Positions 3,305 to 53,546 of a stretch of 64,000 nucleotides of DNA are shown here, piece by piece. The stretch's first letter is position 1. Every line of letters starts with the position of its first letter. Origin of the DNA: Escherichia coli (lineage in GTDB: Bacteria; Pseudomonadota; Gammaproteobacteria; Enterobacterales; Enterobacteriaceae); NCBI RefSeq assembly GCF_009931435.1, contig NZ_CP043414.1; one strand, written 5' to 3'. Below the pieces are notes generated by a model. The model saw nothing but the letters and a program-made list of their open reading frames with translations, made no database searches and was not told the DNA's origin. The translations under genes and the position numbers were made by a program.

Positions 3305-4705
3305 ATGCCACATTCCTACGATTACGATGCCATAGTAATAGGTTCCGGCCCCGGCGGCGAAGGCGCTGCAATGGGCCTGGTTAAGCAAGGTGCGCGCGTC
3401 GCAGTTATCGAGCGTTATCAAAATGTTGGCGGCGGTTGCACCCACTGGGGCACCATCCCGTCGAAAGCTCTCCGTCACGCCGTCAGCCGCATTATAGAAT
3501 TTAATCAAAACCCACTTTACAGCGACCATTCCCGACTGCTCCGCTCTTCTTTTGCCGATATCCTTAACCATGCCGATAACGTGATTAATCAACAAACACG
3601 TATGCGTCAGGGATTTTACGAACGTAATCACTGTGAAATATTGCAGGGGAACGCTCGCTTTGTTGACGAGCATACGTTGGCGCTGGATTGCCCGGACGGC
3701 AGCGTCGAAACACTAACCGCTGAAAAATTTGTTATTGCCTGTGGTTCTCGCCCTTATCATCCAACAGATGTTGATTTCACCCATCCACGCATTTACGACA
3801 GCGACTCAATTCTTAGCATGCACCACGAACCGCGCCATGTACTTATCTATGGTGCTGGAGTGATCGGCTGTGAATATGCGTCGATCTTCCGCGGTATGGA
3901 TGTAAAAGTGGATCTGATCAACACCCGCGATCGTCTGCTGGCGTTTCTCGATCAGGAGATGTCAGATTCTCTCTCCTATCACTTCTGGAACAGTGGCGTA
4001 GTGATTCGTCACAACGAAGAGTACGAAAAGATCGAAGGCTGTGACGACGGTGTGATTATGCATCTGAAGTCGGGCAAAAAGCTGAAAGCCGACTGTCTTC
4101 TCTATGCCAACGGTCGTACCGGTAATACCGATTCGCTGGCGTTACAGAACATTGGGCTGGAAACTGACAGTCGTGGACAGCTGAAGGTCAACAGCATGTA
4201 TCAGACCGCACAGCCACACGTTTACGCGGTGGGCGACGTGATTGGTTATCCGAGCCTGGCGTCGGCGGCCTATGACCAGGGGCGCATTGCCGCGCAGGCG
4301 CTGGTGAAAGGCGAAGCCACCGCACATCTGATTGAAGATATCCCTACCGGTATTTACACCATCCCGGAAATCAGCTCTGTGGGCAAAACCGAACAGCAGC
4401 TGACCGCGATGAAAGTGCCATATGAAGTGGGCCGCGCCCAGTTCAAACATCTGGCACGCGCACAAATCGTCGGCATGAACGTGGGCACGCTGAAAATTTT
4501 GTTCCATCGGGAAACAAAAGAGATTCTGGGCATTCACTGCTTTGGCGAGCGCGCTGCCGAAATTATTCATATCGGTCAGGCGATTATGGAACAGAAAGGT
4601 GGCGGCAACACTATTGAGTACTTCGTCAACACCACCTTTAACTACCCGACGATGGCGGAAGCCTATCGGGTAGCCGCGTTAAACGGTTTAAACCGCCTGT
4701 TTTAA
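3305..4705 (+). CDS. sthA: Soluble pyridine nucleotide transhydrogenase
   Basis: 466-aa [28 protein letters not shown] with FAD/NAD-binding GxGxxG motifs; divergent from fabR. Confidence 0.95.
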
Positions 4706-42428: not shown

Positions 42429-43322
<894 letters not shown>

Positions 43323-43364
43323 TTACCTCATCAATCGCTTGTAGTTATATGTTGTGTTGTGCAC

Positions 43365-43400
43365 ATCTATCCGTTTAGACGTCCAGATGTAAAGATGAAG
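43365..43400. promoter_or_regulatory. metF promoter MetJ operator (met boxes)
   Basis: gtttagacgtccagatgt contains AGACGTCT-like met-box repeats upstream of the metF start. Confidence 0.5.
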
Positions 43401-43559
43401 GAAAAGCTGAAGGGCGTCAACCGAAAAATGACCAATGATGGTGAGGAAAAATCAGGGAAGATGAAAAAAACTCATCTTAATTAGAGGTAATAAAGAGATT
43501 TCTTTATAGCGCAATCAACCTCACTCGTTTTGACTGATATACAGGCAACACAACGGCAC

Positions 43560-43660
43560 CTGTTCTCATTCGAAAAACAACGCCCTGCCACCGGATGGTG
43601 ATGCTAAAGCATCTGATTCGGCCTGCGCTCTCGTGTAGGCCGAATACAGAATCTGCGAAA
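43560..43660. repeat. REP-like palindromic element at the island boundary
   Basis: gattcggcctgcgctctcgtgtaggccgaatac carries a cggcct / aggccg inverted repeat resembling REP units. Confidence 0.4.
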
Positions 43661-43701
43661 TCAACGGGTAACAAACAGTAGAGTCAACTCAGTGCGTACT
43701 T

Positions 43702-45261
43702 TTACTTAATATCTTTCACGCGCATACCGTTGATCTGTTCATCCGTGATGGTATTACCCGCTTTAAAGTAATCAACCACCGCGTGATAAACGTAATAACC
43801 GCCCGTCGTATTGCGCGCTTTACCCTCGGTAAACGCGGTAAAACCATCTCCACCATCAGCAAGGAAACTCTGAGTGGCAATGTGGTAAACCGTCGCATCT
43901 TCAATCGGTTTGCCATTCAGAGTCAGCGAGATAACCCGCTGACCAACCGGCTTGCTGCTGTCGTACTTCATTTCCAGGCCTTTCGATACCTGTAAAACGC
44001 CATTACTCAAACTTGCGCCGTGTTCCATCAAACCGCGTAATTGTTTACCCGTGAGTTCCATCGTCACCAGTTCGTTGGGGAACGGGAAGGTACTGATGAC
44101 GCCACCCATCGTAATTGCACCCGCCGGGATCTCATTGCGAATCCCACCAGAGTTGGTTAACGCCAACTGGGTATTTTTACCCGCCGCTACCAGTAAAGCG
44201 TCCGCCGCCAGGTTCCCCAGGGATGCCGATTCACCATAGGCACGTTTTAATTCAACTGGCGATTGCGCCACCGTTTGCTGCACGACTTCATCCAGCTTTT
44301 TATTCCAACTATCAATCACCTGTTTTGTTTGCGCATCGGGCTTCCACTCGTCGGCGTAAAGGGTTTTAAGCTCGAAGTTTTTCACCGTAAAAGTGTGCGG
44401 TTTCTCTTTGAAGTCGAGAACCAGTTTACCCACATCAATCCCTCCGCTGTCAGTGGAAAGGATGAGCGTATTGCCGACTTTAATCGGTTCCGGCGTACCC
44501 ACATGTGCATGTCCGGTGATCAAAATATCCAGCCCTTTCACCTGACTTGCCGTCTGTATATCTTTATCCAGCGCGCGACGCACATCTGTGCCTCCCATAC
44601 TGGACTGGCGGGCCGGAACACCTTCGTGAATCAGGGCGACGGTCAAATCAACCTTGCCTTTGAGTTCATCGATATAACGTTGTAACCACTTAATTTCATC
44701 ACGCGCTTCAATACCCACTCGCGTGGCAGCGGATACCGTGTCATTAAAGGCAAATACTCCGTGCAAACCAATCACACCAATTTTCACGCCGTCTTTTTCA
44801 ATAATGGTATATGGCTTATCCCAGAATGATTTACTGCTGTTCTGATAAAAAATATTACCCTGCACAATCGGGAATTTTGCCTGACTCAACTGTAATAGGG
44901 TGTTGTCCCAGCCGTGATCAAATTCATGATTCCCTATAGTGACCGCATCGAACGGCATGGTATTCATAATATCGATAATCGCCTTGCCTTTAGTCAGGCT
45001 GCTGATATACGGCCCGGTAAAATAGTCACCCGCATCAAAAAACCAGGTCGCTTTGTTTTTAGCTTTTTCTTGTTTAACAAGCGTAGTGATATTTGCCCAG
45101 CCGCCAATATCCCGTTTACCGTCAGCAATCCACGGCACTTTATAAGGCTCTACATGTGCATGGAGGTCGTTGGTATAAATAATGGTGACATCTTTGGCGC
45201 AGGCCCAAAACGGCAGTGTTAATGCGATACCCGCAGCAAGCATTTTAATTTTCATAAACAA
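43702..45261 (-). CDS. Periplasmic bifunctional metallophosphatase / 5'-nucleotidase, UshA-like (paralog 1)
   Basis: 519-aa ORF with signal peptide ([17 protein letters not shown]), calcineurin-like motifs ([20 protein letters not shown]) and a C-terminal 5'-nucleotidase domain. Not in the K-12 metF-metL interval. Confidence 0.85.
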
Positions 45262-45387
45262 TCCCTTCCAGTGAGATAAAGGATTGCTACATTACGTTCT
45301 GAAAGGCTTTTTTATGTGAGAATACTCACATCCAGAGGCGATAACTGTAGGACAAAATCAACGACCTTATGAAATCGTTGGTGATAT

Positions 45388-46515
45388 ATGTCAAATCTGT
45401 TTGCGATTAATGTCTGTAAAACGTTCGGTTGTCGAAATTTGGGATTGGCCTCATCGGAAGATTACAGTTGGCCAGACTATAAACTGGGTTTTCCGGCACT
45501 GCACTGCCAGGCATGCGGAAGTTACCCCCCTTTGTTTGATGAACAACAATTTCGTGACTGGTTGTCAGTTCACATGACTGCGTGTGCCATAGAAACAGGG
45601 CATTTTTGTCCATCATGCTATTGTAAAGAAAAGATTTTTTATGGCCACAACCCGCAGGGAACACAACGCGTTCAATGCCGTTCATGCAAAAAAGTCTGGA
45701 CTCCGAAACAGCAGCCAGCAAGAGAAATTACGTATCCCCAGTCCATTGAAACCGTTCAACTGTTCATGCCCTTTCAAGGAGCCAGCGCAGTACAAAAGCT
45801 CTATGTTTTAGTCAGTCTTGACGCCACTCGTGGCAACATCCTTCATCTCTCCACGAATTATACGCAACATCAGACAGGAGACAGTCTGCGGTACAGTTAC
45901 AGAGGCAATACAGAACCAACTGAGCACCATAGCGATATTGTGCAGAGGGTAGATATGCGTGAAGCGCAATTCTTGCGCCGGAGCCAGTTCGATGAAATTC
46001 AGTATGGCAGTGCTGTGCTCAAGCGCAACGGCAAGGGAGCCATACTACGCCCGGTTATCACGGCACACGGGCATTTCAGAATACTGAAAATCCGCTTTCC
46101 ACATGTCAAAACGCATATCATTTCACACGAATGTTTTCTGAGAGGCGCAATTATTACAGCCTGGGCAGATCAGTTCCGCCAACAACAAGGCGAACTTTGG
46201 TTCGTAGAAGAAGAAATCAGCGACCGTAACGCTGATATTCCCTGGCATTTTCAGGGAACGACATACCATGGTTGGTGGCAAAATCAGTGGCAACGCTGGG
46301 GGCAGGGGAATAACAGCAAGATGGTCTGCCTGCTCACAGGAGTCTCCTTAGAAAGGGGCGCAAATGTTTCTCTGGCAACCAGTCGTTGCTTTATCACATG
46401 GCTGACAGACCAACACGACTTTACCCAAAGCGCGTTATTATCCGCAGGTCGCGTAACGAAAATGCTGACCTCACTGGCGTTAAAATACAATGAATCGCTC
46501 ACTCCATCTTGTTAG
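45388..46515 (+). CDS. Hypothetical protein with N-terminal cysteine cluster (putative zinc-ribbon), function unknown
   Basis: 375-aa ORF divergent from paralog 1; N-terminus has CKTFGC, CQACG, CPSCYC and CRSCKK motifs within about 100 aa. I do not recognise the family. Confidence 0.6.
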   Translation: MSNLFAINVCKTFGCRNLGLASSEDYSWPDYKLGFPALHCQACGSYPPLFDEQQFRDWLSVHMTACAIETGHFCPSCYCKEKIFYGHNPQGTQRVQCRSCKKVWTPKQQPAREITYPQSIETVQLFMPFQGASAVQKLYVLVSLDATRGNILHLSTNYTQHQTGDSLRYSYRGNTEPTEHHSDIVQRVDMREAQFLRRSQFDEIQYGSAVLKRNGKGAILRPVITAHGHFRILKIRFPHVKTHIISHECFLRGAIITAWADQFRQQQGELWFVEEEISDRNADIPWHFQGTTYHGWWQNQWQRWGQGNNSKMVCLLTGVSLERGANVSLATSRCFITWLTDQHDFTQSALLSAGRVTKMLTSLALKYNESLTPSC

Positions 46516-46744
46516 TCAATACACTCGACAAACGACCATAAATTAATGGGATCACTATTTCTCATTTAATTAAATATATGAATGTATGACTGAAAAATAT
46601 AATCACAGTCAATGTTTAATTAATAACATTATTTGTTACTAAGATCACATAATACTTTCCTGACCTATGCTCTTATAAAAATAAGACACGGTGTTCCTTT
46701 TATTTAAATAATTCAACCAATGTAACAACCCCTATCAAGGAGGG

Positions 46745-48298
46745 ATGATGAGAACTGTATTTACGACTTTATCAGTCATATTCAGCGTGATGTTTTCTCA
46801 CAGTATACTAGCTCAGGACGTTACTATTTATTATACGAATGATATTCACGCACATGTCAATCCGGCAAAAATTCCCGCTGTTGATAAGAACAGACTTGTA
46901 GGTGGTATGGCTAATATTGCAGGCATCGTTAATGAAGCGAAGAAAAAAAACAAAGATGTCTTTTTCTTTGATGCAGGCGACTATTTTACCGGTCCGTATA
47001 TCAGTACCCTGACCAAAGGTGAAGCTATTATTGATATCATGAACACCATGCCCTTTGATGCGGTGTCCGTTGGTAATCACGAGTTCGATCACGGCGTGCC
47101 CAATATGGTATCTCAGTTATCAAAAGCAAAATTCCCCATTCTGCTGGGAAATATTTACTACACCGATACAAATAGACCAGTTTGGGATCATCCGTGGACC
47201 ATTATCGAAAAAGATGGTTTAAAGATTGGTGTGATTGGATTGCATGGTGCATTCGCTTTCTATGATACAGTCGCGGCAAAAGCACGTGAAGGCGTAGAAG
47301 CCAGAGACGAAATTAAATATTTAAATAAAGCACTTGCAGAATTAAAAGGTAAAGTCGACATTACCGTTTTGCTAATTCACGAAGGTGTTCCGGCGCGTCA
47401 ATCAAGCTTTGGTAGTAAAGATGTGGAGCGGCTACTACAGGCAGATATTGAGACAGCTAAAAAAGTGAATGGTGTTGATGTCTTAATTACCGGTCACGCA
47501 CATGTCGGAACACCGCAACCAATAAAAGTTAATAACACATTAATTGTATCTACCGATGCATACGGCACCGACATCGGAAAACTTGTGCTTGATTACAATC
47601 CGAAAACAAAGAAAATTGATAGTTATAATGGTGAGTTAATCACCATCTTTGCAGATCAATTTAAACCTGACACCATCGTTCAAAATACTATCGATAAATG
47701 GAGCGTAAAGCTTAACAAAATCACACAGGAAGTTGTCGGCCATTCTCCCGTAGTTTTAACACGTGAGTATGGCAGTTCTTCTTCTACCGGTAACCTTATT
47801 CTGGATGCAATGATGGAAAAAGCACCTGATGCCATTGCCGGATTTCAAAATAGCGGTGGGATGCGAGCTGATTTTCCTAAAGGTGATATCACACTGGGAG
47901 ATGTTATTAGCACATTCCCCTTTAATAATGACCTCATCGAGATGGATTTGACGGGCCGCGATCTCAAATCATTGATGACGCATGCAACCAATCTAACTAA
48001 CGGTGTGTTACAGGTTTCAAAAAGCGTTGCGGTTGTCTATGACAGCAAAAAACCACTCAACCAGCGGTTAATCTCTTTCACCATTAACGGCAAACCCGTG
48101 GAAGATAATCAAACATATCGTATTGCCACGCACTCCTTTTGTGCCAGTGGTGGTGACGGTTTTGAAGCATTTTTGAATGGAAAAAATGTGAAGACGATAC
48201 CGGGAACAACCTCGGCGGAATCTATCATCGATTATTTCAAAAATCATAAACCTGTCACCCCAGACTTAACTAAACGAGTCATGGACGTCGCCAAATAA
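46745..48298 (+). CDS. Periplasmic bifunctional metallophosphatase / 5'-nucleotidase, UshA-like (paralog 2, most divergent)
   Basis: 517-aa ORF with signal peptide ending ILA-QD and the same NDIHAH / GNHEFDHG / GHAHVG motifs. Confidence 0.85.
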   Translation: MMRTVFTTLSVIFSVMFSHSILAQDVTIYYTNDIHAHVNPAKIPAVDKNRLVGGMANIAGIVNEAKKKNKDVFFFDAGDYFTGPYISTLTKGEAIIDIMNTMPFDAVSVGNHEFDHGVPNMVSQLSKAKFPILLGNIYYTDTNRPVWDHPWTIIEKDGLKIGVIGLHGAFAFYDTVAAKAREGVEARDEIKYLNKALAELKGKVDITVLLIHEGVPARQSSFGSKDVERLLQADIETAKKVNGVDVLITGHAHVGTPQPIKVNNTLIVSTDAYGTDIGKLVLDYNPKTKKIDSYNGELITIFADQFKPDTIVQNTIDKWSVKLNKITQEVVGHSPVVLTREYGSSSSTGNLILDAMMEKAPDAIAGFQNSGGMRADFPKGDITLGDVISTFPFNNDLIEMDLTGRDLKSLMTHATNLTNGVLQVSKSVAVVYDSKKPLNQRLISFTINGKPVEDNQTYRIATHSFCASGGDGFEAFLNGKNVKTIPGTTSAESIIDYFKNHKPVTPDLTKRVMDVAK

Positions 48299-48332
48299 AA
48301 TATCATTTATCAGTCTATTTATTTAACAAGGA

Positions 48333-49958
48333 ATGCGAATGAAAACAGTGCAGCGTACTTTACTTGCCGCAACATTGCTGACTATTTTTTCGGTTTCAGT
48401 CATGGCGCAGGATGTCACGATTATTTATACAAATGATCTTCACGCTCATGTGGATTCTTATAAAGTGCCGTATATCGCAGACGGAAAACGCGACATTGGC
48501 GGCTTTGCCAATATATCTACTTTAGTAAAACAAGAGAAAGCGAAAAATAAAGCCACCTTTTATTTTGATGCTGGAGACTATTTCACCGGCCCTTATATCA
48601 GCAGTCTGACAAAGGGCGAAGCAATAATTGACATTATGAATACCATGCCTTTTGACGCAGTATCAATCGGTAATCATGAGTTTGACCATGGCTGGGATAA
48701 TGCCCTGCGACAATTAAGCAAAGCGAATTTTCCTGTTTTATTGGGCAATGTTTATCATAAAGAGAGTGAGAAACCCTTCTGGAACAAGCCCTACACCATC
48801 CTGGAAAAAGATGGCATCAAGATTGGTATTATTGGGCTACACGGCGTATTTGCATTTAATGATACGGTCTCGGAGCTCTCTCTCCAGGGACTCGATAATG
48901 ACAATAATAACCGCTTTGATAAATCTTCCGAGACCCTTAAGAATCAGGGGATTGAAGCACGTGATGAAGTGAAGTATTTGCAACATTATATCGACGAGTT
49001 ACGTGATAAGGTTGACCTCACTGTGGCGCTGGTTCATGAAGGCGTTCCGGCGCGTCAGTCCAGCATTGGCAATACAGATGTTAGACGCGCTCTTGATAAA
49101 GATATTCAAACCGCTAGCAAGGTGAAAGGATTGGATATTCTGATTACCGGGCATGCCCACGTCGGAACGCCAGAACCAATCAAAGTCGGCAACACCTTAA
49201 TCCTTTCAACTGATAGTGGCGGTATCGATATTGGTAAATTAGTCCTTGATGTCAACCCTACAGCTCGTACCCATAAAATGAAGAGCTTTGAGCTGAAAAC
49301 AGTTTATGCCGATGAATGGATACCCGATCCAACGACACAAAAAGTTATCAATGGCTGGAATAAAAAACTGGCGGATATTGTACGCCAACCAGTGGGTGAA
49401 TCATCGATTGCATTAACTCGCGCCTATGGTGAGTCATCGCAACTAGGCAACCTGTTTACCGATGCAATGCTTGTCGCTGCTCCGACTGCACAGATTGCAT
49501 TGATAAACTCCGGCAGCTTACGTGCGGATATAAATGCAGGCACGATTACCTTTGGCGACATTACCAGTACATTCCCCTTCAAGAATGAACTTACTGAAAT
49601 GGATCTCAGCGGTAAGGATCTGCGTAACCTACTGGAACACGGGGCATCGCTTACCAATGGCATCCTGCAAATGTCAAAAGGCGCAGAAATGCGCTATACC
49701 CCGCAGAAACCAGTAGGTCAGCGCATAGTATCTTTTAAAATTAATAGTGAAGAGATCGTTGATACGAATATTTACCATGTTGCAACAACGACTTTCCTTG
49801 CACTGGGGGGCGATGGTTTTCTGGCATTCAAAGAAGGGAAAAATGTTCAGGTCCGCGCCGGAAATAACATGTCCGATGTCGTGATCGATTATTTGAAGAA
49901 AGGCCACAAGATTACGCCTGCACAGGTAAATGAAATGCGGGTGGACGTTAGCAAATAA
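48333..49958 (+). CDS. Periplasmic bifunctional metallophosphatase / 5'-nucleotidase, UshA-like (paralog 3)
   Basis: 541-aa ORF, about 70 percent identical by eye to paralog 1, with an extra roughly 25-aa insert (ELSLQGLDNDNNNRFDKSSETLKNQ). Confidence 0.85.
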   Translation: MRMKTVQRTLLAATLLTIFSVSVMAQDVTIIYTNDLHAHVDSYKVPYIADGKRDIGGFANISTLVKQEKAKNKATFYFDAGDYFTGPYISSLTKGEAIIDIMNTMPFDAVSIGNHEFDHGWDNALRQLSKANFPVLLGNVYHKESEKPFWNKPYTILEKDGIKIGIIGLHGVFAFNDTVSELSLQGLDNDNNNRFDKSSETLKNQGIEARDEVKYLQHYIDELRDKVDLTVALVHEGVPARQSSIGNTDVRRALDKDIQTASKVKGLDILITGHAHVGTPEPIKVGNTLILSTDSGGIDIGKLVLDVNPTARTHKMKSFELKTVYADEWIPDPTTQKVINGWNKKLADIVRQPVGESSIALTRAYGESSQLGNLFTDAMLVAAPTAQIALINSGSLRADINAGTITFGDITSTFPFKNELTEMDLSGKDLRNLLEHGASLTNGILQMSKGAEMRYTPQKPVGQRIVSFKINSEEIVDTNIYHVATTTFLALGGDGFLAFKEGKNVQVRAGNNMSDVVIDYLKKGHKITPAQVNEMRVDVSK

Positions 49959-50036
49959 TAAAAAAATTATAATGCCATTCATTCACTGAATGGCATTATT
50001 TTTCTCTAAATCAACAATAGATAATGAGATATATTT

Positions 50037-50897
50037 ATGTGTATAAAAAAGCACGGGATAGCTTTATCGATTCTATTAATACCTTGCATTGGAAACGCTC
50101 AGGAAATTAAAAGTGAGGAAGGCTGGTTACATCAAAGCTTGAATGTCATTGGTCGCACAGACTCTCGCTTTGGCCCAAGGCTGACTAACGACCTCTACCC
50201 TGAATATACTGTAGCAGGAAGAAAAGACTGGTTTGATTTTTATGGTTATGTTGATCTACCAAAATTCTTTGGCGTCGGCAGTCACTATGATGTTGGGATC
50301 TGGGATGAGGGCTCACCACTATTTACGGAAATAGAACCTCGGTTTTCCATTGACAAATTGACCGGATTAAATCTTGCGTTCGGCCCTTTTAAAGAATGGT
50401 TCATTGCAAACAACTATGTCTATGATATGGGTGACAACCAGTCATCCCGGCAAAGTACATGGTATATGGGGCTTGGTACAGATATCGACACGGGTCTACC
50501 AATTAAGCTTTCTGCCAATATATACGCCAAGTATCAGTGGCAAAACTATGGTGCCGCTAATGAAAATGAATGGGACGGATATCGATTCAAAATAAAATAT
50601 AGCATTCCTCTTACCCATTTATTCGGAGGGCGATTGGTATACAATAGTTTTACTAACTTTGATTTTGGCTCCGATCTTGCGGACAAATCACACAATAATA
50701 AACGAACCAGTAATGCTATTGCTTCAAGCCATATCCTTTCCCTGCTATATGAACACTGGAAATTTGCATTTACACTACGTTATTTTCACAACGGTGGACA
50801 ATGGAATGCTGGGGAGAAAGTTAACTTCGGAGATGGTCCATTTGAATTAAAAAACACAGGATGGGGAACCTATACTACTATTGGTTATCAATTTTAA
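50037..50897 (+). CDS. Tsx-family nucleoside-specific outer-membrane channel
   Basis: 286-aa ORF with signal peptide; [110 protein letters not shown]...GYQF follows Tsx nearly block for block. Confidence 0.88.
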
Positions 50898-51042
50898 ATC
50901 AGGTGATGTTTTAGATATTTTTACTTAATGCCATTTTGTAATTGTCATAAATAACTTCACCATTCACACTGTGAATTCATCGCTCAACACAAAAGCCCCC
51001 TTATTACCGGGGCACTGACCAAAGGCAAAATGACAATCAATC

Positions 51043-51104
51043 ACCACCTCCGCAGGAGGTGGTTTAGAGGTGACAACAAAAGCTGGCAACTGCCAGCTTT
51101 TGTT
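51043..51104. terminator. Two hairpins between the convergent tsx-like gene and metL
   Basis: caccacctccgcaggaggtgg and aaaagctggcaactgccagcttttgtt inverted repeats. Confidence 0.5.
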
Positions 51105-51113
51105 CAATAATCA

Positions 51114-53546
51114 CTACAACAACTGCGCCAGACGGTTAATATCCGACTGAATCGCCCCGGCGGTGACGTCGCGCCCTGCGCCTGGCCCACGGATCACCAG
51201 CGGGTTGTCGCGATACCAGCGGCTTTCGATGGCAAAGACGTTATCGCACGGTAGTAGTGATGCCAGCGGATGGTCTTCTCGCACCGCTTCCACGCCTACT
51301 CGCGCTTTGCCGTTAGCATCGAAACGCGCCACGTAGCGCAACACCAGCCCCATTTCACGGGCCGCTTCCAACCGTTGTACCATCTGCTCATTAAGTTCAT
51401 CGCCATTTTCAAAGAAATGGTCGATGCTGCCACCTTCGCAATGGGTTGGCACCAGTGATTCAACACGCACCTGGTCCGGTTCAATGTTGTAACCCGCTTC
51501 ACGCGCCAGAATCACCAGCTTGCGCATCACGTCTTTGCCGGAGAGGTCATCACGCGGGTCAGGTTCAGTTAAGCCCTGCTGCCACGCCTGATCCACCAGC
51601 TCGGTAAACGGCACGCTACCGTCGAATTGCAGGAACAGCCAGGAGAGCGTGCCGGAGAAGATCCCGCTGATCGACAAAATAGTGTCGCCGCTGTCGATCA
51701 GATCGCGCACGGTATGGTTGATCGGCAAACCTGCGCCGACGGTGGCGTTGTATAGCCAGTGACGCCCGGTTTTTTCGAACGCGTCGTGGATCTGTCGATA
51801 TTTATTGCTGTCGCTGGCTCCCGCCAGTTTGTTGGCACTGATGACGTGGAAACCGTGGCTGGCGAAATCGAGATACTGATCAGCAAGCTGCTGGCTGGCA
51901 GTAACGTCCAGCACAACTAAATCATCATACGGATGGGCACGCATCCACAGGAACAGCGACTCTTCATCCTGTTCGACGGCTTCATCATTAAAGAAGGCTA
52001 GCGCACGGCTGGCGTCCAGCCCGTCATAGCTCAACAGGCTGCGACGGCTGTCCACCACGCCTGCCAGCACAAATTCAAAGCCGGTGCGCGCCGAGAGTGT
52101 ACTCTGCTCACGGGCGAACAGTTCCAGCCAGCGGGAACCGATATTGCCCTTACCGAACAATACCAGGCCGATGCGTTTTTCTGCGCGGAAGACGGACTGA
52201 TGCAGCCCCTGAATCAGGCTTTCGGTCGGGCCGGTGCGCAGTACTGCCACCAGGCTGATGCCGTCATCGGACTGCCAGGTAAACTCGACCGGCTGGCCTT
52301 TCAGTTGCTGCCAGAAGCGGTGGCAATGCAGCGGGTTACGGGTGACGCCCGCCCCAACCATCGCCACCAGCGCCAGCCCCTGACGCAGACGCAGTTCGCC
52401 GGGTAATCCTGCTTCGTCGAGGATTTTCAGCGCACTGTCGGCCACTTCCGAGGTGTAGCAAAATTGCAGCAACTGGCGATCGTTATGCACGCCAACTGCC
52501 AGTGGGCGCACCTGAGCACGTTTCAGGATTTGGTCGATCTCTTTATGCGCCAGTTTAAAATCCTGACTGGCGGGCACCTGAAACTCAATCAAACAGACAT
52601 CATCGTGGCTGGTGACAATACGCGCGCCAGTACCTGAGGCCAGCACGCGTTCAATGCGCGTGGAACCTTGATCCGGCGTGTAGCTACAGCGCAGCTGCAG
52701 GTCGATTTCGCTGCCAGAAACTGGCTGTAAAGTACGGGCGTGAAGAACGGGGGCCGCCAGACGCGCCAGTTCGCTGGCTTCATCCAGACGCAGCAACGGC
52801 AGCAGGCAGGCGTCTTTCACTTTACGCGGGTCGGCGCTATATACCCCGGCGACATCGCTCCAGATGGTTACGCGGGAAACTCCCGCCAGCGCACCGATTT
52901 GTGTCGCGGAATAGTCGGAACCGTTACGCCCCAGCAGCACCGTTTCACCGGCGTTGTTACGGCTGATAAACCCGGTCACCACCAGACGTTTGCCCGGATG
53001 TTGTACCAGTAGCTGTTGCAGCAACGGGTAAGAAAGCCCTTCATCAACCTGCGGCTGCGCGGCGCGTTCAGCGCGTAAAAACTCGCGGGCATCAAGCCAG
53101 GCCGCTGGCAGCCCTTGTTGATTAAGTACCGCAGACATCAGGCGCGCCGACCACACTTCACCGTGGCCCACCACTTCCGCATACACCGCATCGTTAATAC
53201 CGCTGTCGAGCAGCGCCGCCAGGCGTTCCAGATCGCTGACAAAAGCGCTAATGAGGCTATCGGCTTCTTCAGCGGGTAGCAGGCCGCTAATCAGATCGCA
53301 CTGATAGCGACGCAGCGTTTGTTGAACCTGATGCGCAGAGAGACGATCGGTCTGGCTTAGTTTCAACCAGTTAATCAACTGGTTAGTGGTGCTACCGGCG
53401 GCGGAAACCACCATCATATCGTCAGGCTGAGAGTACTCCGCCATAATGCCCGCGACACGCAAATAACACTTCACATCAGCCAGACTACTGCCACCAAATT
53501 TATGCAGTTGACGACCTTTCGCCCCTGCCTGCGCAATCACACTCAT
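51114..53546 (-). CDS. metL: Bifunctional aspartokinase II / homoserine dehydrogenase II
   Basis: 810-aa ORF MSVIAQAGAKGRQLHKFGGSSLADVKCYLRVAGIMAEY. Confidence 0.95.
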   Translation of the reverse strand: MSVIAQAGAKGRQLHKFGGSSLADVKCYLRVAGIMAEYSQPDDMMVVSAAGSTTNQLINWLKLSQTDRLSAHQVQQTLRRYQCDLISGLLPAEEADSLISAFVSDLERLAALLDSGINDAVYAEVVGHGEVWSARLMSAVLNQQGLPAAWLDAREFLRAERAAQPQVDEGLSYPLLQQLLVQHPGKRLVVTGFISRNNAGETVLLGRNGSDYSATQIGALAGVSRVTIWSDVAGVYSADPRKVKDACLLPLLRLDEASELARLAAPVLHARTLQPVSGSEIDLQLRCSYTPDQGSTRIERVLASGTGARIVTSHDDVCLIEFQVPASQDFKLAHKEIDQILKRAQVRPLAVGVHNDRQLLQFCYTSEVADSALKILDEAGLPGELRLRQGLALVAMVGAGVTRNPLHCHRFWQQLKGQPVEFTWQSDDGISLVAVLRTGPTESLIQGLHQSVFRAEKRIGLVLFGKGNIGSRWLELFAREQSTLSARTGFEFVLAGVVDSRRSLLSYDGLDASRALAFFNDEAVEQDEESLFLWMRAHPYDDLVVLDVTASQQLADQYLDFASHGFHVISANKLAGASDSNKYRQIHDAFEKTGRHWLYNATVGAGLPINHTVRDLIDSGDTILSISGIFSGTLSWLFLQFDGSVPFTELVDQAWQQGLTEPDPRDDLSGKDVMRKLVILAREAGYNIEPDQVRVESLVPTHCEGGSIDHFFENGDELNEQMVQRLEAAREMGLVLRYVARFDANGKARVGVEAVREDHPLASLLPCDNVFAIESRWYRDNPLVIRGPGAGRDVTAGAIQSDINRLAQLL

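Follow-up and report, generated by a model that had tools for sequence, protein, structure and literature searches.

What do the genes that separate metF from metL in some Escherichia coli genomes do for the cell? In a 64-kb stretch of the contig NZ_CP043414.1 (the whole stretch is referred to as the window), the metF-metL interval consists of exactly five long open reading frames (ORFs) according to the ORF listing. They encode three paralogs of the 5'-nucleotidase superfamily, all with signal peptides (nuc1, nuc2 and nuc3), a Tsx-like channel and a cysteine-rich (Cys-rich) protein, and the Pfam and NCBIfam domains agree with this gene content, which had been read earlier from the DNA letters without database searches (the sequence-only reading). 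Our favored answer, which we consider rather probable, is that the island is a catabolite-controlled module scavenging extracellular nucleotides. The locus itself is not new, as it has been annotated, partly solved structurally and interpreted alike in print. What is new here is the history of a locus found in three states, the recognition of three conserved orthogroups of nucleotidases that go with a CRP-type promoter and, above all, a partner protein, read as transposase-derived, whose family tracks genes of nucleoside and nucleotide catabolism. The layout is as follows.

42429-43319, minus strand: metF (ORF listing)
43470..51114, no strand: variable metF-metL segment, absent from K-12-type genomes (blastn comparison with L003, the empty site, and L002, the short form)
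43702-45255, minus strand: nuc1, 5'-nucleotidase-family protein of 517 aa, the conserved core paralog (ORF listing)
45256..45387, no strand: divergent promoter/operator region between nuc1 and the Cys-rich protein gene (17-locus conservation)
45388-46515, plus strand: Cys-rich cytoplasmic protein of 375 aa, with two zinc ribbons and an RNase H-like domain
46745-48298 (RefSeq start 46748), plus strand: nuc2, second 5'-nucleotidase-family paralog, 517 aa
48333-49958 (RefSeq start 48339), plus strand: nuc3, third paralog, 541 aa, with an insertion of ~20 aa
49969..49999, plus strand: perfect 13-bp hairpin with a run of T behind it, in the gap from nuc3 to tsx; resembles a terminator or attenuator (RNA fold)
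50037-50897, plus strand: Tsx-family outer-membrane nucleoside channel paralog, 286 aa (ORF listing)
51075..51104, minus strand: perfect hairpin of 14 bp that follows the metL stop codon and resembles a terminator of metL, in island-specific sequence
51114-53546, minus strand: metL (ORF listing)

All five ORFs are intact and under purifying selection. Between E. coli alleles, the ratio of nonsynonymous to synonymous substitution rates (dN/dS) is 0.025-0.035 for nuc1, 0.11 for nuc2, 0.08 for nuc3, 0.13 for tsx and 0.12-0.28 for the Cys-rich protein, and all five are therefore taken to be functional genes.

The locus corresponds to GR31 (metL..metF) of the avian pathogenic E. coli (APEC) strain BEN2908, for which nucleotide processing and nucleoside uptake have already been proposed (PLoS One 2026; PMC12928451). 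That paper is descriptive and leaves aside the Cys-rich protein, regulation, the three-state polymorphism and the distribution beyond E. coli, and the window carries another allele, at about 94.5% DNA identity to the B2-type islands. RefSeq also annotates the locus, a possibility that the sequence-only reading had left room for; the labels are 'bifunctional metallophosphatase/5'-nucleotidase' for all three enzymes, 'cytoplasmic/hypothetical protein' and 'nucleoside-specific channel-forming protein Tsx'. The earlier statement that no operon of this architecture has been characterised holds in so far as no biochemical or genetic study of the island genes was found in the literature, but the genes are annotated in hundreds of genomes, the structure 3IVD/3IVE exists and the idea is published for GR31. 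The scavenging function that was suggested at the same time fares similarly: gene content and retained catalytic residues favor it and it is the best reading, but it had already appeared in print.

The three enzymes are clear members of the 5'-nucleotidase superfamily. Each carries an N-terminal calcineurin-like metallophosphatase domain (Metallophos) and a C-terminal domain that binds the substrate (5_nucleotid_C), found in nuc3 at E 9e-11 and 1e-35, respectively, and matches the same NCBIfam families from end to end, and 5'-nucleotidases in the PDB are matched at E 1e-30 to 1e-45. By inspection, the N-termini have the n-h-c layout and AxA site of typical Sec signal peptides. The nuc1 protein is ~98% identical, over residues 21-519, to the PDB entries 3IVD/3IVE ('Nucleotidase'), whose construct begins after residue 20. 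We take these to be structural-genomics entries in which c4898 of E. coli CFT073 binds uridine or cytidine; no functional paper on them was found in the literature. They represent essentially the same protein as nuc1 and are 60-75% similar to nuc2 and nuc3, but offer a structure alone and are silent on nuc2, nuc3, the channel and the partner protein.

Comparison with UshA, the periplasmic UDP-sugar hydrolase/5'-nucleotidase of E. coli, shows what the enzymes share with it and where they depart from it. The Metallophos plus 5_nucleotid_C architecture is common to UshA and the wider family (CD73, NadN, Thermus thermophilus 2Z1A, YfkN), and a Sec signal peptide, with a probably periplasmic location, is a further likeness to UshA. 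UshA residues D41, H43, D84, N116, H117, D120, H217 and H252, as well as R410, F429, N431, F498 and D504, are kept in nuc1-3 and in 19 orthologs; among these are the dinuclear-metal ligands, the His117/Asp120 dyad, Arg410 and the Phe429/Phe498 base clamp. By contrast, the metal ligand Q254 is a His in all three, and the Arg375/Arg379 region has diverged, with R375 falling in a gap and R379 aligned to Tyr, although a nearby Arg in LKRAYGES may substitute. The term 'UshA-like' used in the sequence-only reading therefore suits the superfamily domains and the catalytic residues, but none of the three is an ortholog of E. coli UshA, with which they share 24-26% identity and whose equivalog cut-off in NCBIfam they miss by far (153-165 bits against 600). 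The same is true for CpdB (83-102 against 486), NadN (122-133 against 436) and SoxB (144-154 against 550), and nuc1-3 are therefore best described as superfamily members that belong to no named enzyme family. UshA is moreover a single gene, whereas the island has three tandem or clustered paralogs, accompanied by a tsx gene and by a partner protein dedicated to them.

The paralogs are not recent duplicates. While nuc2 and nuc1 of the window share 57% identity, three orthologous groups can be followed across genera, with 87-98% identity in the nuc1-type, 85-86% in the nuc3-type and 67-72% in the nuc2-type group, compared with 50-72% between groups. The nuc3-type, marked by its insertion of about 20 residues, has orthologs at 85-86% identity in Escherichia albertii, Enterobacter, Klebsiella and Citrobacter. 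Judging from the sequences, nuc1-3 appear to be ancient paralogs, each conserved across genera, and since these identities have long been kept apart, the three presumably differ in substrate range.

The channel protein, which has a signal peptide, scores 491.8 bits against a cut-off of 311 with the NCBIfam Tsx subfamily model, the match spanning residues 2-286 of its 286. Alignment along the entire beta-barrel gives 62% identity with K-12 Tsx, and the closing residues ...GYQF place a Phe at the C-terminus. It is ~58% identical to the Tsx proteins of related modules in other genera, and the window Tsx is therefore a lineage of its own. In CFT073, the tsx paralog c4894 is listed as up 3.3 log2-fold on TosR overexpression in an RNA-seq table (PMC5956150). 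That tsx alone appears in that table fits with the hairpin at 49969-49999 (-20.5 kcal/mol, z -5.4), which stands between nuc3 and the channel gene. One arm of this hairpin (AATGCCATT..., window 49980-49998) recurs inverted at 50926-50944, just past the tsx stop codon, so that tsx is bracketed by related short sequences. In E. coli R32_14_1F, the genome closest to the window, RefSeq/PGAP calls the tsx paralog (L001:10718-11578) an incomplete pseudogene ('missing C-terminus'), although translation of this ORF gives the 286-aa window protein unchanged; the B2 allele is annotated as intact, and the flag is probably an annotation artefact.

Regulatory sequence is concentrated in the 132-bp spacer between nuc1 and the Cys-rich protein gene, which has a mean column identity of 76% with invariant blocks in an alignment of 17 loci from more than 12 genera. 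Its elements, and one further site upstream of nuc2, are listed here.

45292-45305, nuc1/Cys-rich protein spacer: invariant block TTACGTTCTGAAAG
45315..45330, no strand: perfect CRP box TGTGAGAATACTCACA, the sole zero-mismatch match in the 64-kb window
45359..45380, no strand: inverted repeat CAACGA-N10-TCGTTG just upstream of the Cys-rich protein start, right arm AAATCGTTGGT invariant
46634..46649, no strand: CRP-like box TGTTACTAAGATCACA upstream of nuc2, one mismatch, identical in the B2-type allele

With the consensus TGTGA-N6-TCACA, six matches of at most one mismatch were found in the 64 kb against 1.9 expected, and both half-sites of the perfect box are conserved among the 17 loci. The center of the box lies 28.5 and 30.5 nt from the candidate -10 hexamers TAATGT (nuc1) and CAAAAT (Cys-rich protein gene), a predicted spacing that would fit class II geometry (~-41.5) within 1 nt on both strands. 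In the inverted repeat, the left arm varies without compensatory change; an RNA helix was therefore rejected, a protein site or a leader element being likelier. No known RNA element or riboswitch was found by Rfam in the AT-rich leaders at E<=1. The motif ACGTTCT occurs in the spacers of the Enterobacteriaceae and of Motilimonas, and AACGAT repeats in that of L057; motifs of the AACG(A/T)/ACGTT type were considered as a shared operator for the Cys-rich protein and rejected, being absent from L056 and not above chance for AT-rich sequence. No CytR operator (paired GTTGCATT-like octamers) was found in the nuc1/Cys-rich protein spacer. Two CytR-like octamers, AATTCAAC and AATGTAAC, lie 1 bp apart at window 46710-46726, downstream of the CRP-like box and just upstream of the nuc2 ribosome-binding site; each is one mismatch from the reverse complement of GTTGCATT, and they could be due to chance.

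At ~35 enterobacterial loci, identified through a scan of the enterobacterial alignment, the Cys-rich protein is always divergent from a nuc1-type gene, and within the Enterobacteriaceae the pairing with nuc genes is found at no fewer than five distinct chromosomal sites. The contexts of distant homologs, down to ~25% identity, were sampled by seven look-ups, and all seven adjoin nucleoside or nucleotide genes, although of varied kinds.

Salmonella Give: a porin, an e(P4)-type 5'-nucleotidase lipoprotein and a class II phosphodiesterase
Motilimonas: deoD, a transaldolase gene (tal), deoB and nupC on one side; add on the other
Vibrio taketomensis: a 5'-nucleotidase-family gene
A further distant homolog: nupC and a nucleoside phosphorylase gene
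A further distant homolog: deoB, deoD and a NupG-like gene
A further distant homolog: deoD

Such constancy of nucleoside and nucleotide neighbors fits a dedicated regulator or sensor and does not fit a transposase with random cargo. In Salmonella enterica serovar Give the porin, e(P4) and class II cyclic-nucleotide phosphodiesterase genes form an IS3-flanked module (L014:3023-8389) divergent from a Cys-rich protein homolog of 462 aa; the module is absent from the complete E. coli genomes searched.

These features recall the CytR/CRP nucleoside regulon (tsx, deo, udp, cdd, nupC and nupG). Both have a Tsx-family channel and CRP boxes at the promoters, the distant Cys-rich protein homologs adjoin deoD, deoB, nupC and add, and the function of the island would fit upstream of NupC/NupG and deo. 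The differences are that the island channel is a diverged paralog, that the candidate regulator has no relationship to CytR, a LacI-family protein, or to DeoR, and that the island has no convincing CytR operator, only the one-mismatch octamers upstream of nuc2.

We infer the enzyme substrates, the periplasmic location, the dependence on CRP and the regulatory role of the Cys-rich protein as follows. Since the promoters carry CRP boxes, cAMP-CRP probably turns the genes on when preferred carbon sources are exhausted. The nuc1-3 proteins, as Sec-exported dinuclear-metal enzymes of the 5'-nucleotidase family, would act in the periplasm and take phosphate off nucleotides and related phosphoesters to leave nucleosides, for which the Tsx paralog would raise the permeability of the outer membrane. 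Uptake of these nucleosides by NupC/NupG, the housekeeping transporters, would then supply the deo, udp and cdd pathways. The Cys-rich protein would regulate at the conserved divergent promoter region, possibly in answer to a nucleoside or nucleotide. An island of periplasmic nucleotidases and a nucleoside pore is ordinary in kind, yet it is common and uncharacterised. The substrates of the three conserved paralogs would fill a gap in what is understood of how enterobacteria use extracellular nucleotides, products of nucleic-acid breakdown and signalling nucleotides in gut, urine and tissue.

A different purpose for the same enzymes would be interaction with the host. Nucleotidases in the periplasm or released from the cell could degrade extracellular ATP, NAD or (cyclic) dinucleotides, or make adenosine, and so blunt immune signalling, as AdsA, Nt5e, CdnP, SntA and CpdB do in other pathogens. 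The nearest NCBIfam neighbors of the nuc enzymes include Nt5e and the multifunctional enzymes of the YfkN/CpdB type, and with three paralogs several such signals might be covered. Prominent among the carriers of the full form are B2-type genomes of extraintestinal pathogenic E. coli, APEC and adherent-invasive E. coli, as compared in PMC12928451. Distribution and regulation, however, speak for a more general role. A BLAST survey of 5,426 complete E. coli genomes, a check that the sequence-only reading had called for, placed the full five-gene form in 658 (about 12%), of which the window allele (>=99% identity) accounts for 97 and the B2-type allele, at about 96%, for 563. A short form consisting of nuc1 and the Cys-rich protein only occurs in ~1,180 further genomes, ST131 included; the two-gene core is thus present in 1,838 of the 5,426 (roughly one third), and the metF-metL site is empty in the remaining two thirds or so. 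Isolates with the window allele come from goat, sheep and chicken, and the core pair is chromosomal in environmental or commensal Kosakonia, Phytobacter, Kluyvera and Rahnella. In addition, the enzymes have ordinary Sec signal peptides and no surface anchors, the promoter logic is of the CRP-type catabolic kind, and distant Cys-rich protein homologs stand beside the purely catabolic deo, nupC and add genes. A virulence function is accordingly regarded as unlikely, and nucleotide scavenging remains the preferred account.

The Cys-rich protein requires an explanation of its own. Its presence had been reported as that of a 'cysteine-cluster protein' and left unexplained, and it is now the most informative and least ordinary component of the island. 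Pfam finds nothing above threshold in it except a weak InsA zinc ribbon, and the same Zn_ribbon_InsA model is found in 7-18 of 44 family members (7 at E<=0.001). When the family profile is used, the second zinc ribbon matches IS1 InsAB' with an hhalign probability of 96.5% (E 9.5e-10), and the fold of the C-terminal domain is RNase H-like, as in DDE transposases. Homology of this domain to IS1 InsB was sought by profile-sequence comparison and only the InsA part aligned, so that for the C-terminal domain the fold is the one ground for transposase ancestry. Conserved throughout the family are eight Cys, G149, N157, Y169, R198, Y206, P222, H229, H247, E248, W297, W301 and N368. Only E248 is universally acidic, and secondary-structure mapping shows no conserved acidic residue on core beta1 or after beta4; from this mapping the protein is read as transposase-derived, with its DDE site probably lost. 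Other differences from IS1 are an extra N-terminal zinc ribbon, a C-terminal helical bundle and, in the window protein and the enterobacterial clade, a gap in place of the InsA helix-turn-helix, which most of the longer distant homologs keep.

Many database entries name the homologs 'IS1 family transposase', and the protein might indeed be a working transposase or its recent relic, with the nucleotidase and tsx genes as cargo and no regulatory role. The InsA-type zinc ribbon and the DDE-type fold are what such an element would have, and passenger cargo would explain why the module sits at five or more loci. The evidence beyond the fold is nevertheless contrary. The NCBIfam IS1 transposase model fails on the window protein (20.4 bits against a cut-off of 100), and the catalytic acidic residues do not appear to be conserved. 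There are no IS ends: neither terminal inverted repeats nor target duplications are seen at the ends of the island, whose junctions replace sequence. Genomes hold one or two diverged copies and never identical multicopies, and the gene is syntenic at metF-metL in many genera. With a dN/dS of 0.12-0.28 it is under selection that speaks for a host function, and its neighbors always belong to nucleoside or nucleotide metabolism even where the genes themselves are unrelated, unlike the cargo of a generic transposase. An active or recently active transposase is therefore judged improbable.

We infer instead that the Cys-rich protein is a domesticated IS1-type transposase acting as the dedicated regulator or sensor of the module. 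In IS1, InsA is a DNA-binding repressor. As a tentative extension, the protein could be the first of an undescribed family that joins zinc ribbons of the InsA type to an RNase H-like domain with a degenerate catalytic site, its members being dedicated, probably ligand-responsive, transcription regulators that cooperate with CRP at operons for nucleoside and nucleotide scavenging. The family would span the Enterobacteriaceae, the Vibrionaceae and relatives, would have as targets the 5'-nucleotidase/Tsx, e(P4)/phosphodiesterase/porin and deo/nupC/add genes, and would be mislabelled 'IS1 family transposase' or 'cytoplasmic protein' in many databases. If this is true, a domesticated IS1-type regulator across gamma-proteobacteria would provide a clear bacterial case of a transposase turned metabolic regulator, and a widespread mis-annotation of the Cys-rich family would be corrected.

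Phosphate acquisition as a Pho-type backup to PhoA, UshA, CpdB and AphA, and not as a means to obtain carbon or nitrogen or to salvage nucleosides, is also hardly probable: periplasmic nucleotidases such as UshA and CpdB do release inorganic phosphate and related enzymes aid growth on nucleotides or DNA as phosphate source, but the three intergenic regions contain no Pho-box-like sequence even at 5 mismatches in 18 and have CRP boxes instead, the co-encoded channel is predicted to be nucleoside-specific, and the family is associated with nucleoside catabolism and transport, not with phosphate transport, and Pho regulation was rejected. Anti-phage defence was rejected as well, none of the five proteins matching a PADLOC defence-system model at E<=0.01.

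Several observations weigh against a CRP-controlled scavenging module with its own regulator. Enzymatic, transport and expression data on the island genes were not found, except for the response of c4894 to TosR. Because the phosphate-binding residues R375 and R379 of UshA have no aligned counterpart, UshA is no guide to the substrate preference of nuc1-3. The hairpin at 49969-49999 means that nuc2, nuc3 and tsx may be more than one transcript. No convincing operator is common to the nuc1/Cys-rich protein spacer and the region upstream of nuc2, and the missing InsA-type helix-turn-helix weakens the case for direct DNA binding by the Cys-rich protein. Low G+C together with the TosR effect suggests silencing of the H-NS type.

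How did the island come to lie between metF and metL? The sequence-only reading saw a unitary insertion of ~7.6 kb at 43520-51110. The segment is indeed absent from K-12-type genomes, but its boundaries are ~43470-51114. Homology to the K-12-type genome L003 stops at window position 43469 and restarts at 51115; the spacer of K-12-type genomes is ~350 bp long, and ~200 bp of the L003 spacer have no counterpart in the window. Relative to the K-12-type site, the island is thus a replacement of sequence and no clean insertion. No terminal inverted or direct repeats, tRNA gene or integrase-type junctions were found at the ends, and insertion of a mobile element was rejected on these grounds and on the replaced junctions.

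Nor is the island a unit. In many Citrobacter, Klebsiella pneumoniae, K. oxytoca and K. spallanzanii, as well as in Kosakonia, Phytobacter, Pseudocitrobacter, Kluyvera, Superficieibacter and Escherichia whittamii, nuc1 and the Cys-rich protein gene adjoin metL within the metF-metL interval; the pair also occurs there in Salmonella enterica subsp. arizonae, with the Cys-rich protein gene truncated. In all, the pair occupies this site in at least nine other enterobacterial genera, which contradicts a single 7.6-kb insertion. Being at the same site across genera, the pair is probably ancestral at metF-metL and the K-12 state probably a deletion in K-12-like lineages.

The second part is a later acquisition. 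Homology between the short and the full form ends inside the 3' end of the Cys-rich protein gene at ~46328, and the add-on of ~4.8 kb comprises this 3' end together with nuc2, nuc3 and tsx. The Cys-rich protein alleles of the full and the short form are 72% identical with dS saturated (45388-46515 against L002:8068-9198), whereas the adjacent nuc1 is 98% identical, which points to recombination with a foreign copy, with a breakpoint between or within the genes. Some 12% of E. coli would thus have gained nuc2-nuc3-tsx through recombination in which the 3' end of the Cys-rich protein gene was exchanged as well. Base composition shows a similar partition, with a G+C content of 52-60% in the flanks, 47-51% in nuc1 and the Cys-rich protein gene and 34-47% in nuc2-nuc3-tsx.

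Full modules related to that of the window lie between kdsA and chaA in E. albertii, cryptic Escherichia clades and one E. coli, and at other sites in Enterobacter, Klebsiella sp. and Citrobacter sp. In these modules the Cys-rich protein is divergent from nuc1, nuc2 (one or two copies), tsx, nuc3 and a radical SAM/SPASM gene. The last of these ends the modules of E. albertii, Enterobacter asburiae, Citrobacter sp. and one E. coli and is not present in the window. It is closest to anaerobic sulfatase maturases, at 278 bits against a cut-off of 349, and was located at four loci.

L008:134-1171, minus strand: radical SAM/SPASM gene
L025:1955-3043, minus strand: radical SAM/SPASM gene
L050:1779-2930, minus strand: radical SAM/SPASM gene
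L028:135-1226, minus strand: radical SAM/SPASM gene

The nuc1 orthogroup contains a minimal SxAxR motif (SAATR, residue 175), which was considered as a formylglycine-type target for this radical SAM gene and rejected as too weak.

A few smaller features of the locus and its relatives may be recorded. A 167-aa ORF at window 42981-43484 (plus strand), antisense to the metF start and promoter region, is mostly the reverse frame of metF and probably not a gene. In the empty K-12-type spacer of L003, a 44-aa hypothetical ORF is annotated at 4076-4210, and the ~200 bp without counterpart in the island form (4150-4349) include what by eye resembles a palindrome of the repetitive extragenic palindromic (REP) type. 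In Citrobacter, Klebsiella and Pseudocitrobacter, a LysR-family regulator and a carboxymuconolactone-decarboxylase-like (CMD) gene lie between metF and nuc1 (L004:5897-7272, L010, L019, L030-L040), while in Kluyvera the LysR/CMD pair sits between the Cys-rich protein gene and metL. Finally, some genomes hold two modules, a full one at another site in addition to the two-gene core at metF-metL, and both have their own diverged copy of the Cys-rich protein gene.

E. coli SCPM-O-B-8794: L023 and L028
Citrobacter sp. wls619: L036 and L050
Escherichia sp. MOD1-EC7003: L021 and L046

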